Below are positions 49,748-60,915 of a stretch of 64,000 nucleotides of DNA, piece by piece. The stretch comes from a virus (Duplodnaviria > Heunggongvirae > Uroviricota > Caudoviricetes). A program made the position numbers and the translations under genes. The notes beneath the pieces were generated by a model, which made no database searches, was not told where the DNA came from, and saw nothing but the letters and a program-made list of their open reading frames with translations. The stretch lies in IMG/VR virus record IMGVR_UViG_3300028833_000001, positions 287,171 through 351,170 of that record; one strand, written 5' to 3'. Positions within the stretch are counted from its first letter, which is position 1. Each line of letters opens with the position of its first letter.

Positions 49748-51367
49748 ATGATAAAAATTATTGTTGCAGTAGGTAATTATATCCCAGAAAAGGGGTTTCC
49801 AATTGGAAAAAACGGTGGCTTGGCCTGGAATTTTCCAGAAGACCTTAAATGGTTCAGAAAAACAACTGAACACAATATAGTTGTAATGGGCAGAAACACG
49901 TATAAATCATTCGGAGGTAAGCCATTACAGAATAGAGACAATTATATAGTTTCAAATTCAATGACCGAAATCCCAGAAGGATTTTGCGGGATTTTGCACA
50001 GCATTGATGAAATTGTTGACTTATCTAAAAACCAAATAGGAGACGTGTATATTATTGGTGGCGCAGAGTTATACAGGTCAGTTCTTGACGCTGATATTGT
50101 TGATGAAGTTTTAAACGACTTTATTGATGTTGAAGTTCCAGATGCAGACACATTTTTCCAGCCTTTGGATTTGAATAAGTGGAAAATTGATGAAGAGGGT
50201 ATAAGATTAAGCGATAAATGCACTGTCAATACATTTAAACATGCAAAATTTTTTAATGATGTTGATGAACAATATTTGAATTTGGTGCAAGATGTTATAG
50301 TTAATGGTGAATTGAAAGAAACACGGGCTGGAATGACAAGGTCTGTTTTTGGAAAGCAACTTCGTTTCAACCTTAAAAATGGTTTGCCATTGCTAACAAC
50401 AAAAAAAGTTTACACAAACGGTATCATTCATGAACTTATTTGGTTCCTTAAAGGCGATACGAATATTAAATATCTTGTTGACAATAATGTGCATATATGG
50501 GATGATGACGCATACAGATATTATCTTGAGCTTGTTGAAAAAAACAACGAAGTCTTTAAATGTGATGACACACCATTGTTGAATGCTCATTACTTTGAGC
50601 CTATCACAAAGGAAGAGTTCTTGAAAGCTGTCATTGAAGAAAAAGACTGTTGGTTATACCTGGATAGATTGGCTGGTTTTATGTCATACTATCCAAACAA
50701 CTATTATATTCATTATAAATTTGGCGACCTTGGTCCTGTTTATGGTGAACAATGGAGAAACTGGTATGGCGTTGACCAAATAAAGACAGTTATTGAAACA
50801 TTAAGAACAAATCCAGATGACAGAAGAATGATTGTCTCTGCTTGGAATGTTAAAGAATTGGATAAAATGGCTCTTCCTCCTTGTCATTACTCATTTCAAT
50901 TTTATACAAAAAAAATGGATATTGTAGAAAGAATGAATTGGGCCTTAGAACATAATTTAAATTGTTGGGATGAAAAATCTTTGGATGACAATAATGTACC
51001 TTCACGGAAATTAAGTTGCCTCTGGAATCAACGTAGTGTAGATTCAATATGCGGATTGCCGTTCAATATAGCATCATATGCAATTCTTACTTATATGATT
51101 GCACAATGCTGTAATATGAAACCAGATGAATTGATATTTAATGGTGGAGACGTTCATGTATATGAAAACCATATAGAAGCATTTACAGAACAATTATACA
51201 GAAATCCACATAAATATGCATTACCACAATTGGAGCTTAATCCAAACGTAAAAGAAATTGATGATTTTAGGGCATATGATATTAAAATAGTTGGATATCA
51301 ATCATACCCAGCGATAAAATATCAATTAAATGTAGGCCTAAATAATAACAATGGCGAAGCTAAATAA
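49748..51367 (+). CDS. thyA: bifunctional dihydrofolate reductase-thymidylate synthase
   Basis: N-terminal DHFR (IGKNGGLAW..PEDLKWF, VVMGRNT, IIGGAELY, DTFF) in frame with ThyA (LPPCH, QRSVD, GLPFNIASY, GDVHVY). Confidence 0.95.
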   Translation: MIKIIVAVGNYIPEKGFPIGKNGGLAWNFPEDLKWFRKTTEHNIVVMGRNTYKSFGGKPLQNRDNYIVSNSMTEIPEGFCGILHSIDEIVDLSKNQIGDVYIIGGAELYRSVLDADIVDEVLNDFIDVEVPDADTFFQPLDLNKWKIDEEGIRLSDKCTVNTFKHAKFFNDVDEQYLNLVQDVIVNGELKETRAGMTRSVFGKQLRFNLKNGLPLLTTKKVYTNGIIHELIWFLKGDTNIKYLVDNNVHIWDDDAYRYYLELVEKNNEVFKCDDTPLLNAHYFEPITKEEFLKAVIEEKDCWLYLDRLAGFMSYYPNNYYIHYKFGDLGPVYGEQWRNWYGVDQIKTVIETLRTNPDDRRMIVSAWNVKELDKMALPPCHYSFQFYTKKMDIVERMNWALEHNLNCWDEKSLDDNNVPSRKLSCLWNQRSVDSICGLPFNIASYAILTYMIAQCCNMKPDELIFNGGDVHVYENHIEAFTEQLYRNPHKYALPQLELNPNVKEIDDFRAYDIKIVGYQSYPAIKYQLNVGLNNNNGEAK

Positions 51368-52865: not shown

Positions 52866-53310
52866 AAGTGATTGTGAGAATGATAGCAAAACAACTATCA
52901 TGCATAGGCGAGAAATCCCTATGTAGAATCTCCTAAATTCGGTAGAATCCTTAAAGGCGTTAGCCTTCGTAAGAGAGAAAATATGTAACCTCACTAAACA
53001 ATAATGTGGAAGGACTAACCGAGCGAAAATGTAATGCGGAATTTCAATAAGTTAGGAAGATATTACATAATCGTGTAGAGGCCAAACGGGAGATACCTAA
53101 GTTGGAATTTGTATAATTGAGGGATAGCGCAAGCAAGTATGTTTTCTTTTAACAGTTAACAGAACAATCAAATTATACATCTTGCAAGAATTCCAATATG
53201 GTAAGATGGTCCAGGCCACAACAACACTACAAGCAGTGTCGAAACCAGACATAAGTACTGTTGTAACAAAGTGTTGGCTATGATAACATAGTGTGGCATC
53301 ACAATTACTT
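52866..53310 (+). ncRNA. group I intron-like RNA, free-standing (no exons found)
   Basis: P3 ATCTCC/GGAGAT, P4 TTCGG/CCGAG, P6 CGA/TCG, P7 GAGGCCA/TGGTCC, P8 TACC/GGTA and P9 GCCAC/GTGGC. Closed by a terminal helix AAGTGATTGTGA/TCACAATTACTT. Confidence 0.75.
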
Positions 53311-54001: not shown

Positions 54002-54718
54002 ATGAATCAGAAAAGAGAATACGTTAGAAAAAATTTGGATATAATAAACAAAATGATAGAAAACAAACGACCTAAGTTTGAAATAGCTAGGGTTTTGGGA
54101 GTTAAATATTCCACATTAGATAAATATTTAAAAGAATTTGGTATTGATTATAAAGGAAACCCAAATAGAAAGGGAATTCCGCATATGGAAGGAAGAATGC
54201 TAATTGAAGAATATTTAAATGGAAATAGAAACATACAAGCATCTAAACTAAGACAAAAACTAATAGAAAATGGTTTAAAAGAAGAAAAATGTGAATGCTG
54301 TGGGTTAACTGAATGGATGGGTAAAAAAATTCCGTTAGAACTTCACCATAAAAATATGAACCATAACGATAATAGTTTAGACAATCTTCAAATACTTTGT
54401 TCTAATTGTCATTCTTTAGCACATGAATATAATAATACAAAAGGTAAACCAGAAAGTTCTATTGATACTATTTTATTAAAAAAACGTGTTAAAGAGGTTG
54501 GTCATTGCAAACAGTGCGGAAAAGAATTAACAAATAGCCAGAAAATTTATTGTTCACAAGAGTGCGCTCATTTAAATGTTAGTAAAATACCACAAAAAAA
54601 CGAATTAATTGATAAATTAAATGAGTTTAACTGGAATAAAACAAAAACTGGTAAGTATTTTGGCGTAAGTGATAACGCAATTCGTAAATGGATTAAAAAG
54701 TACGACATAAAAAAATAA
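54002..54718 (+). CDS. HNH homing endonuclease with HTH domains
   Basis: CECCG...LELHHKN.NHNDNSLDNLQILCSNCH, a second CxxC..YCS..C finger and a C-terminal HTH. Confidence 0.9.
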   Translation: MNQKREYVRKNLDIINKMIENKRPKFEIARVLGVKYSTLDKYLKEFGIDYKGNPNRKGIPHMEGRMLIEEYLNGNRNIQASKLRQKLIENGLKEEKCECCGLTEWMGKKIPLELHHKNMNHNDNSLDNLQILCSNCHSLAHEYNNTKGKPESSIDTILLKKRVKEVGHCKQCGKELTNSQKIYCSQECAHLNVSKIPQKNELIDKLNEFNWNKTKTGKYFGVSDNAIRKWIKKYDIKK

Positions 54719-54898: not shown

Positions 54899-55044
54899 GC
54901 TCCTATAGTTCAATGGACAGAACAGAAGTTTCCTATACAAGAGTAAACTTGTTTAAATCATTTCTATGTGAAATTGGTTTTATTGGGTTCGAGTCCCACA
55001 CATAGAACAAACTTCAAATCTTGGTTCGAATCCAAGTAGGAGTA
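54899..55044 (+). tRNA. trnR: tRNA-Arg(CCT) interrupted by a 74-nt insert in the anticodon loop
   Basis: GAAGT-TTCCT[insert]AA-ACTTC. Acceptor, D and T arms are intact. Confidence 0.8.
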
Positions 55045-55977: not shown

Positions 55978-56092
55978 GTGTTGATGGCGCAATGGTAGAC
56001 GCACACATGCACGTGGTTCGCGGTTCGAGTCCGCAAGTAGTTGGGCACAACGAAAAAATGGTAGAATGATGGTTCGAATCCATCTCAACACA
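55978..56092 (+). ncRNA. tRNA-like RNA with two T-arms
   Basis: Acceptor GTGTTGA/TCAACAC, D-arm, internal GCGG-TTCGAGT-CCGC and terminal GATGG-TTCGAAT-CCATC. Confidence 0.6.
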
Positions 56093-56099
56093 CAATAAA

Positions 56100-56291: not shown

Positions 56292-56361
56292 CGGGATGTA
56301 GTTTAATGTTAAAATAATTGTGCTTAGGACAGTGATATAGGTGCGAATCCTATCATCTCGG
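56292..56361 (+). tRNA. Pro-like tRNA paralog with non-canonical anticodon loop (GCTTAGG)
   Basis: Body nearly identical to the next tRNA-Pro and with the same 3' trailer CAAATATTTCATA. T-loop is TGCGAAT. Confidence 0.5.
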
Positions 56362-56394
56362 CAAATATTTCATATAGTATAAACATAATAGCAT

Positions 56395-56527
56395 CGGGAT
56401 GTAGTTTAATTTGGTAAAATGCGTTAATTTTTTCGTGTTTTGTTCTTTAAAAACACAGACAGCAACTTTTCTTTAAAATTATTGTTTTGGGGAAACCGTG
56501 TTATAGGTTCGAATCCTATCATCCCGA
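56395..56527 (+). tRNA. trnP: tRNA-Pro(GGG) with 60-nt insert between positions 28/29
   Basis: CG[56424-56483]GTT-TTGGGGA-AACCG, with C1-G72 and A73. Confidence 0.75.
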
Positions 56528-56837: not shown

Positions 56838-57018
56838 TGCGGGATGGAGCAGAGGTCAGCTCGTCAGGCTCAATACAGAGTGGTTTTCTGAAAAAAACTG
56901 TTGATGCCAATTGTTCAAGAGAAGAGCCGATACACAATCAAATTGTGTGTCGAGGCTGGTTCGAGTCCAGCTGGCGTCGCTAACCTGAAGGTCGGGGGTT
57001 CGAATCCCTCTCCCGCTA
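56838..57018 (+). tRNA. trnfM: initiator-type tRNA-fMet(CAT) interrupted by a 108-nt insert containing a nested tRNA-like fold
   Basis: 1:72 mismatch, GGAGCAG..GCTCG D-arm and TCAGG-CTCA[56873-56980]TAA-CCTGA. Confidence 0.8.
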
Positions 57019-57022
57019 CAAA

Positions 57023-58585: not shown

Positions 58586-58653
58586 CTTAAAATAAAATTT
58601 ATCCCGAAACGTGTTTTTAGCTTTTTATGACTATTTATAAAAAAAATAGTAAT

Positions 58654-59358
58654 ATGAATAATTTTGAAAATTGCAAATCGTTAAATGACATTGCTAGGCA
58701 AGAATTTGGAAAAGCAAACTATACTAATCGTGAGAAAGCTAAAAAACTATTATTTGAACACGGAATAGATTGGTTAGATTGGCTAGAATCTATTAAAATT
58801 TCTAATAAAAAGTTTTGTCTTGTTTGTGGTAAAGAATTAAGAAATGGTCAAACAAAATTTTGCAGCCATTCATGTTCTGCTGGATATAACAATAAGTTTC
58901 GAAAAACATATAAAGATAATGAAAGCCGAGAACATCATGAAAAAATTACCAAAAGTGACAAATTCTGTTTGTATTGTGGCGCAAAATTAACAAATCAACA
59001 AAAATTATTTTGTAATAATAAATGTCAACAAGATTTCAAGTATAAAGAATATATAGACCGATGGATAAATGGTGATGAAAATGGTTTAAAGGGCCAGTAT
59101 TCTTTATCAAGGCACATCAGGCGATTTTTATTGGAAAAAACAAATTGTAAATGTGAAAAATGTGGCTGGGGAGAAAAAAATCCATATACAAACACAATCC
59201 CATTAGAAATACATCATATTGATGGTGATTATACAAATAACAAGGAAGAGAATCTTCAGGTTTTGTGTCCAAATTGTCATTCTTTAACAGAAACACACAA
59301 ATCACATAATAAGAACGGAAGACAAGGTAGAAGAAAATATTATAAAAAAACAGAATAA
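58654..59358 (+). CDS. HNH homing endonuclease
   Basis: Two CxxCG..FC..C fingers and CEKCG...LEIHHIDGDYTNNKEENLQVLCPNCH. Start set at the second ATG, downstream of ACTATTTAT. Confidence 0.9.
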   Translation: MNNFENCKSLNDIARQEFGKANYTNREKAKKLLFEHGIDWLDWLESIKISNKKFCLVCGKELRNGQTKFCSHSCSAGYNNKFRKTYKDNESREHHEKITKSDKFCLYCGAKLTNQQKLFCNNKCQQDFKYKEYIDRWINGDENGLKGQYSLSRHIRRFLLEKTNCKCEKCGWGEKNPYTNTIPLEIHHIDGDYTNNKEENLQVLCPNCHSLTETHKSHNKNGRQGRRKYYKKTE

Positions 59359-60487: not shown

Positions 60488-60561
60488 GGCGGCATAGCGG
60501 AGTTGGTTTCATGCGCCGCTCTCATAAGGCGGAGACGGTGGTTCGAATCCACCTGCCGCCA
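60488..60561 (+). tRNA. trnM: tRNA-Met(CAT) elongator (or lysidine Ile2)
   Basis: CCGCT-CTCATAA-GGCGG with a paired G1-C72. Confidence 0.88.
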
Positions 60562-60562
60562 C

Positions 60563-60796: not shown

Positions 60797-60915
60797 CGGG
60801 GAGTAGCTCAGTTGGTTAGAGCGCGTAATGTAGATTCTTGTAAAAGAATCAAACAGCAATGTTTACGAATGTCATTTGAAGACCGTGGTCGTGGGTTCGA
60901 GTCCCACCTCCCCAG
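60797..60915 (+). tRNA. Gln(TTG)-anticodon tRNA with 45-nt insert between positions 28/29
   Basis: CG[60826-60870]GTC-ATTTGAA-GACCG, canonical D and T arms, C1.A72 and G73. Confidence 0.7.

Follow-up and report, generated by a model that had tools for sequence, protein, structure and literature searches.

Introns of bacterial and phage tRNA genes are textbook group I ribozymes. A family of tRNA introns too small for this class was described from Lak megaphages by Devoto et al. (2019, Nat Microbiol; PMC6784885; preprint 10.1101/356790); there the introns are called "enigmatic" and highly conserved, and four of them are listed in Table S6 (see also Fig. 4). The paper states that the intron of Lak tRNA-Thr(TGT) "may encode a tRNA", that some Lak genomes are without the intron, and that the true point of excision lies one base away from that called by tRNAscan, which we read as a C|AA junction. 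Rfam recognized no family there for three of the four introns, and the Thr intron was matched through its nested tRNA only (PMC6784885). A 2026 survey of jumbo phages likewise says that tRNA introns "could encode another tRNA" (PMC13037316). In their available parts, neither paper reports RNA evidence for removal of the introns or gives a rule for their architecture or a mechanism. Our literature search found no paper explaining the removal of Lak-type tRNA introns, and the family has been left unexplained since 2019.

The intron analysed here is located in a window of 64,000 nt (positions 287,171 to 351,170 of the IMG/VR virus record IMGVR_UViG_3300028833_000001). The record is 361,445 bp long, has G+C content of 33.6% and is rated complete. 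The genome is designated as G000, and coordinates are those of the window unless prefixed G000:C1. Collagen-like tail fibres are encoded in the genome, the majority of its proteins are without PHROG match, and an NCLDV capsid was not found in it; we take the virus to be a novel jumbo phage. About 30 tRNA genes are arranged in an array on one strand at 52.7-61.5 kb of the window, and the gene in question starts 9 nt after the end of a tRNA-Ile gene. CCA is not encoded by those array tRNAs whose 3' flank was read (fMet, Ile, and Asp), so 3' endonucleolytic processing and CCA addition must already act on them.

The array contains several other unusual elements. Free-standing HTH-HNH and zinc-ribbon-HNH endonuclease genes are present at 54002-54718 and 58627-59358 and are possible drivers of intron or tRNA-gene mobility. 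A tRNA-like RNA at 55990-56095, with outer acceptor stem GTGTTGA/TCAACAC around two T-arm motifs (56019 and 56068), and an orphan T arm at about 55280 were not called by any tool. The tRNA at 56292-56362 (Rfam 42.5 bits) has anticodon TTA, with which it would decode UAA stop codons; long ORFs are normal under code 11. Its neighbour at 56395-56527 is an insert-bearing paralogue and belongs to a second, distinct family of tRNA inserts, characterized by a hairpin followed by (A/G)CAGCAA and found also at 60797-60915 and, in the related phage G001, at L041:16399-16519 and L041:16713-16843. Genes with this type of insert score 39-46 bits with the Rfam tRNA model. No Rfam family matched 52866-53310 at E<=0.5. 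Outside the array, a fused dihydrofolate reductase-thymidylate synthase of 539 aa is coded at 49748-51367; such a fusion is known mainly from protists and plants and less from phages.

The split gene is coded on the plus strand. Its 5' exon (56838-56872) comprises the acceptor 5' strand, D arm, anticodon-stem 5' strand, and C32 U33 C34 A35, and ends with TCAGG-CTCA. The 3' exon (56981-57018) starts with TAA-CCTGA and comprises U36 A37 A38, the anticodon-stem 3' strand, variable loop, T arm, acceptor 3' strand, and discriminator A. Between positions 35 and 36 of the tRNA is an insert of 108 nt (56873-56980) beginning with ATACAG. The initial annotation, made from the sequence alone, had stated that removal of the insert restores TCAGG-CTCATAA-CCTGA, and this is the case: the exons joined in silico form a 73-nt cloverleaf with anticodon loop CTCATAA and the same junction as in uninterrupted genes. 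When introns were allowed, ARAGORN predicted the gene at 56838-57019 with a 108-nt intron, placed the cut one base to the left, and so miscalled the tRNA as Arg(CCT); the gene was missed by ARAGORN without introns and by the Rfam tRNA model. The comparison with insert-less orthologues proposed earlier settled the junction. At this point, CTCA-TAA is found in uninterrupted initiator genes of further viral and metagenomic contigs, which decides for the CAU anticodon over Arg(CCT). Several of these genes match the target exons over long stretches, and the uninterrupted gene in L017 has the same sequence as the 3' exon from its anticodon-stem strand to the 3' end.

Bacterial initiator tRNAs have a 1:72 mismatch, A11:U24, and three G-C pairs at 29-31:39-41. 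The joined tRNA has a U1xU72 mismatch, A11:U24, and two of the three G-C pairs, with A-U at 29:41; its TCAGG/CCTGA anticodon stem is common to many uninterrupted phage homologues. The gene had been noted as the only one of initiator type in the window, and a search for a second fMet tRNA extended this to the 361-kb genome, where the sole other CAU tRNA (60488-60562) has a paired G1-C72. The split gene is thus the only initiator-type tRNA of the phage, and its splicing should matter for function. An initiator tRNA of another phage (L008:460-1290) has in the same loop an insert some 760 bp long that carries an HTH-HNH gene, while the gene is uninterrupted in the sister genome L029; the non-coding flanks of this insert look too short for a group I core.

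The minimum-energy fold of the 108-nt insert consists of a 5-bp hairpin (56876-56890), a cloverleaf (56902-56979), and a free C (56980). Its z-score is -4.07, and none of 200 shuffled sequences folded as well. The first three nucleotides (A-U-A, 56873-56875) are unpaired. They are followed by hairpin P1 (56876-56890), in which CAGAG pairs with TTCTG around the loop TGGTT under a closing C-G pair, and by the single-stranded A-rich linker AAAAAAACTGT (56891-56901), the counterpart of UAAAUC or AAAUUAAA linkers in related introns. The target linker AAAAAAACUGU is A-rich like the linker AAAAAAAUUAAA of the Lak Thr intron, but without UAAAU. About 29 nt (N-U-A, hairpin, and linker) thus precede the tRNA-like domain (56902-56979), which has a closing stem of 8 bp (56902-56909 with 56972-56979), a D-like arm GTTC/GAGC (56913-56927), a long arm without anticodon loop (56928-56952, 9-11 bp with a 3-5-nt loop), and a T-arm mimic GCTGG-TTCGAGT-CCAGC (56955-56971). 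The closing stem and the 5-bp T stem give a stack of 13 bp, after which the unpaired C (56980) is the last nucleotide of the intron. The ATACAG start and the arms of the inner cloverleaf as initially annotated agree with this fold. The inner unit was then regarded as a second tRNA, of which the tRNA-like fold stands; however, it is not a bona fide tRNA, as its best Rfam match, tRNA-Sec, scores 19.9 bits where the gathering score is 47, and it is without a 7-nt anticodon loop. The low score results from the 8-bp acceptor stem and the long arm lacking the 7-nt loop. The proposed pairing of TCTGAA with the 5' anticodon strand is possible, as TTCTGA can pair with TCAGG, but TCTGA is the 3' strand of P1. 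In a by-eye search for intron sequence complementary to the exon ends, this pairing did not recur in other members, and guide pairing was rejected. Origin of the insert as a recent copy of another tRNA was also rejected: blastn over the whole genome found no other copy and matched only an 11-17-nt T-arm motif.

Relatives of the intron occur in the same array and in other phages, so the insert is not unique to this genome. The array tRNA-Arg(CCU) (54899-55044, plus strand; Rfam tRNA 51.3 bits) has a 74-nt intron at 54935-55008. This intron starts with ATACAAGAG and consists of ATA, hairpin CAAG/CTTG, linker TTTAAATCA, a 9+4-bp stack with the distal hairpin TGGG-TTCGAGT-CCCA beyond the 9-bp stem, and a final C. 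Phage G001 (372,793 bp), found via a protein neighbouring the target locus, carries an 80-nt insert in the orthologous initiator tRNA, with the junction CTCAT|CTACGG...GAGACC|AA one base further 3' than in the target. A third phage, G006 (171 kb), has nearly the same 80 nt in its initiator tRNA; the two introns are near-identical, while the exons differ. Shorter relatives were found in tRNA-Thr of G001 (68 nt) and tRNA-Asn of G006 (66 nt). Exact searches of IMG/VR with a 22-mer of the inner tRNA and with a 33-mer of the Lak Phe intron gave no match, no relatives were found among GenBank phages, and a degenerate 5'-junction pattern gave mostly chance or unrelated matches, with only L078 and L124 real. 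Other large inserts were seen in the same genomes: tRNA-Leu(TAA) of G001 (L041:14493-14833) has an insert of 257 nt, and a CAU tRNA of the Lak-like phage G007 (L270:9735-10064) has one of 255 nt that follows U and ends with G, as a group I intron does. The G001 array also includes a match to permuted tmRNA (L041:13816-14034) with 52 bits at a gathering score of 47.

Four Lak introns from Table S6 and seven tRNA genes of G000, G001, G006, and G007 give ten family members, the Gly intron of G007 being identical to Lak Gly and counted once. All ten begin with unpaired N-U-A, in which U and A are invariant. Hairpin P1 has 3-6 bp and is closed by C-G in nine members and by A-U in one. The following linker is of 8-17 nt, A/U-rich, and usually contains UAAAUC or AAAUUAAA. 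A closed domain comes next, whose closing and distal stems stack to 13 layers in 10/10 members. Eight members have as distal stem a T-arm mimic with TTCGA-type loop, and the stack is a clean 13 bp in six of these; the initiator introns of G001 and G006 have 8 + 4 pairs with a one-base bulge and an 8-nt TTCAATGT loop. A single C stands before the 3' exon in the eight T-arm-mimic members, while G001 Thr and G006 Asn have a plain 13-layer hairpin with a GUGA cap followed by A-C, so that the last unpaired C is invariant across the family. The inside of the domain is highly variable: the target and Lak Thr have a full cloverleaf in which a long arm replaces the anticodon arm, G000 Arg has a single GG-containing bulge, and the two hairpin forms have nothing. 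Helix sequences differ completely among members, while the unpaired junction nucleotides (U+2, A+3, and C-1) are constant. The intron is inserted at 36/37 in most members and at 35/36 in the target, G006 Asn, and Lak "Tyr"; both cut sites thus follow intron structure and not the tRNA frame. Excision restores in all ten a 7-nt anticodon loop that fits the tRNA body. By this rule, Lak "Tyr(GTA)" is recast as Asn(GTT), which fits its class I body better, and the Asn(GTT) gene of G006 is cut in the same way.

The initiator exons of the target, G001, and G006, when joined in silico, are 73 nt long in each case with loop CTCATAA. Compensatory double changes between the three sets are found at 7:66, 27:43, 28:42, and 51:63, which indicates that the cloverleaf of the split gene is kept by selection with the intron in place. 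Splicing out of the intron is argued mainly from this selection, which also agrees with the earlier view of an intron and not of a dead gene. The 108-nt insert is very probably a real intron belonging to the Lak-type small structured tRNA introns of very large phages.

Known intron classes do not accommodate it. The initial annotation had judged the insert too short for group I or II and had seen no obvious bulge-helix-bulge, and the end nucleotides, size, Rfam searches, and a bulge-helix-bulge test on six members all point the same way. For group I, the 5' exon ends with A, the intron ends with C and is 108 nt long, and Rfam gave no match at E<=1 or E<=10. Group II introns have a GUGYG 5' end, an AY 3' end, a domain V, and several hundred nt, and the target starts with AUACA and ends with CGC at 108 nt. 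A bulge-helix-bulge consists of two 3-nt bulges flanking a 4-bp helix at the splice sites; in the six members, the central helix never reached 4/4 pairs and the exon-side helix had at most 1/3. Covariance models of hammerhead, twister, twister-sister, pistol, hatchet, HDV-like, and hairpin ribozymes did not match either, and no Rfam ribozyme family was hit up to E=10 on 56873-56985 (113 nt). A likeness to the pistol ribozyme ("hairpin + UUAAAU") was dropped, as the order of helices differs and the model gave no match. Transposon-like insertion was rejected on the grounds that target-site duplication and terminal inverted repeats are both missing.

Enzymes that could take part in processing were searched for in the genomes. 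The earlier suggestion to look for an RNA ligase in the rest of the genome led to one in G000, with OB fold PF21189 and PF09414 (phrog_968; G000:C1:6975-8222, minus strand). It is part of an RNA-repair-like cassette (G000:C1:5040-9440, minus strand) outside the window (L274). Two genes downstream of the ligase is a polynucleotide-kinase domain protein (phrog_505; G000:C1:5040-5918, minus strand), whose 145-aa N-terminal half is without assigned domain. The same cassette and strand code for a VWA/DUF7788 "RNA-binding protein", possibly Ro60-like, and a DUF932 protein. A CCA-adding enzyme is encoded by G000; RtcB, EndA (PF01974), and MBL-type RNase Z were not found in it. Of three PF09414 matches in G001, one is a ligase gene that is interrupted by a LAGLIDADG gene and located 3 kb upstream from the tRNA array; in G006 a single ligase match exceeded the family cut-off, and the Lak annotation includes T4 RNA ligase 2 and a CCA-adding enzyme. 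Large phages commonly carry genes of this kind, and they are weak evidence, indicating capacity and not a link to the intron.

The position of the insert, the family architecture, and the selection on the split gene are observed; the chemistry of removal we infer. Probably the intron is removed by a tRNA splicing route not described from any organism, using either a new small ribozyme built on a three-way junction or common bacterial RNA-processing endonucleases that act as rulers together with a phage ligase. Between these, removal by protein endonucleases and a ligase is tentatively preferred, at somewhat less than even confidence. In such a route, the split gene would be transcribed with its neighbours, and removal of the intron would give a normal CAU initiator tRNA. 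The 5' cut would be fixed by intron structure, three nucleotides (N-U-A) ahead of P1, and the 3' cut one nucleotide (C) past the 13-layer rod, which is here dressed as a tRNA with a T-loop elbow. An RNase E/G-like or other enzyme could cut the single-stranded N|N-U-A just 5' of P1; this site, in single-stranded RNA ahead of a hairpin and with an invariant U at +2, resembles the published preference of RNase E. An elbow-measuring 3' endonuclease would be predicted to cut at the 3' site, one base past an acceptor/T stack of 13 layers, and an RNase Z-like enzyme may do so. Cuts by RNase Z-like and RNase E/G-like enzymes leave 3'-OH and 5'-phosphate, ends that an ATP-dependent ligase can seal; the 5' exon would carry the 3'-OH and the 3' exon the 5'-phosphate. 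The exons would be held together by the tRNA body during sealing of the loop by an ATP-dependent RNA ligase, for which the OB+NTase enzyme of the phage is a candidate; the neighbouring polynucleotide kinase could serve for 5'-OH ends. Since genes of EndA, RtcB, and RNase Z type were not found in G000, host enzymes must be assumed for the cuts.

The initial annotation had supposed that the inner tRNA may recruit RNase P and 3' nucleases to excise the insert. Its 3' half fits, as the 3' site suits an elbow-measuring 3' endonuclease, but RNase P at the 5' site does not: about 30 nt separate the 5' splice site from the inner unit downstream, and the site is set by |N-U-A and a hairpin. Nor is the tRNA shape needed, as two members replace it with a plain 13-layer GUGA hairpin. 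The route had also been called undescribed. No mechanism is given in the Lak report (PMC6784885), but introns of this type, including a tRNA inside a tRNA-Thr intron, were published there in 2019.

The protein route has weak points that lead to the ribozyme. Two members cap the rod with GUGA, a poor fit to RNase Z or RNase P, and the invariant unpaired nucleotides in a three-way junction look equally like a ribozyme core. Furthermore, the preferred substrates of OB+NTase (Rnl5-type) and Rnl2-type ligases are nicked RNA duplexes and not loops, which also weakens the assignment of the sealing step. T-loops and GNRA-type loops such as GUGA are classical RNA-RNA docking modules. A new small self-cleaving ribozyme might be imagined, in which the anticodon stem, P1, and the 13-layer rod form a three-way junction with distal T-loop/GNRA docking; it would cleave at one or both junctions, and the exons would be joined by reversal of cleavage, host RtcB, or the phage kinase-ligase. 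It would account for the invariance of U+2, A+3, and C-1 and for the A-rich linker across Lak, G000, G001, G006, and G007 despite different helices, for a rod of fixed length whose cap swaps between T-loop and GUGA, for cut sites (35/36 or 36/37) independent of the tRNA frame, and for a polynucleotide kinase adjoining the ligase, as 5'-OH ends would need. We nevertheless consider it rather unlikely. Rfam gave no ribozyme match at E<=10 on the 113-nt stretch, natural RNAs of 66-114 nt are not known to excise themselves at two sites, and the conservation could equally come from a protein site or from recent horizontal spread, to which the near-identical G001 and G006 introns in differing exons would correspond.

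It is quite improbable that the transcript stays unspliced, serving as a decoy for host anticodon nucleases, as a tRNA masked from them (masking from nucleases was already suggested initially), or as a precursor that RNase P and RNase Z cut into the inner tRNA-like RNA and two tRNA halves. Other tRNA-like RNAs without normal anticodon loops are numerous in the array (e.g., 55990-56095), the inner domain has the acceptor/T-arm stack recognized by RNase P, RNase Z, and CCA-adding enzymes, and a CCA-adding enzyme is present in the phage; however, a decoy would not need the junctions that restore a fitting 7-nt loop in ten members, compensatory changes keeping the outer anticodon stem would be useless if the loop stayed broken, and the split gene is the only initiator-type tRNA the phage has. 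Death of the gene by a selfish insertion, or an artefact of assembly, is the least probable of all and would be very surprising. Homing-endonuclease genes do occur in the array (54002-54718 and 58627-59358), the related initiator tRNA of L008 differs from that of L029 by the insert of about 760 bp with an HNH gene, and the host presumably supplies its own initiator tRNA. Against a pseudogene, three phages retain the interrupted gene, its exons intact and with compensatory changes, and the insert has neither target-site duplication nor terminal inverted repeats. Orthologous initiator tRNAs with an intron near the same site in two further independent assemblies (G001 and G006) make three interrupted genes, which is contrary to an assembly artefact.

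If the proposed removal is true, tRNA-processing enzymes with a ligase, or a ribozyme of 70-110 nt, would be a third way of splicing tRNAs. The orthologues of the split initiator tRNA show selection acting on the interrupted gene itself. The architecture rule is simple and testable, it fixes splice sites, and it could enter tRNA annotation for large phages, where it mends anticodon errors of gene finders such as Arg for fMet here and Tyr for Asn in Lak.

Among known systems, group I introns interrupt the anticodon loops of cyanobacterial tRNA-fMet and tRNA-Leu(UAA) and of Azoarcus tRNA-Ile. It is common to the target and these introns that they lie in anticodon loops of tRNAs of bacterial type, tRNA-fMet among them, and that their distribution is patchy and apparently mobile. 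Group I introns are, however, at least about 200 nt long, follow U, end with G, and have a P3-P8 core, whereas the target is of 108 nt, follows A, ends with C, and has no such core. Archaeal and eukaryal tRNA introns are cut by splicing endonuclease at a bulge-helix-bulge; they can slide by one base and can carry functional RNA, as the Haloferax tRNA-Trp intron, which encodes a C/D box RNA. Position near the anticodon and local RNA structure that sets the sites are shared with the target, as would be cutting by protein in the preferred route, but the context is bacterial/phage, no bulge-helix-bulge can be drawn for the six members examined, and an EndA gene was not found in G000. Heal-and-seal rejoining of broken anticodon loops is carried out by Pnkp and Rnl1 of phage T4 and by fungal and plant Trl1. 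G000 similarly pairs a polynucleotide kinase with an ATP-dependent RNA ligase, which we would connect with the intron only by inference; unlike T4 Rnl1, the ligase is of OB+NTase type (Rnl5-like), and a 2',3'-phosphatase domain was not recognized. The closest system is that of the Lak introns. The target differs from them in its initiator tRNA, in the 361-kb phage with G+C content of 33.6% compared with about 540 kb and 26%, in the 35/36 site instead of 36/37, and in having no sequence identity outside motifs. In common are the site in the anticodon loop, N-U-A, the hairpin, the A/U-rich linker, the T-arm-mimic domain, and the final C, and the full cloverleaf is shared with the Lak tRNA-Thr intron, in which a 9-bp arm stands for the anticodon arm. 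The target intron is therefore a further member of the published family and is not new in kind.
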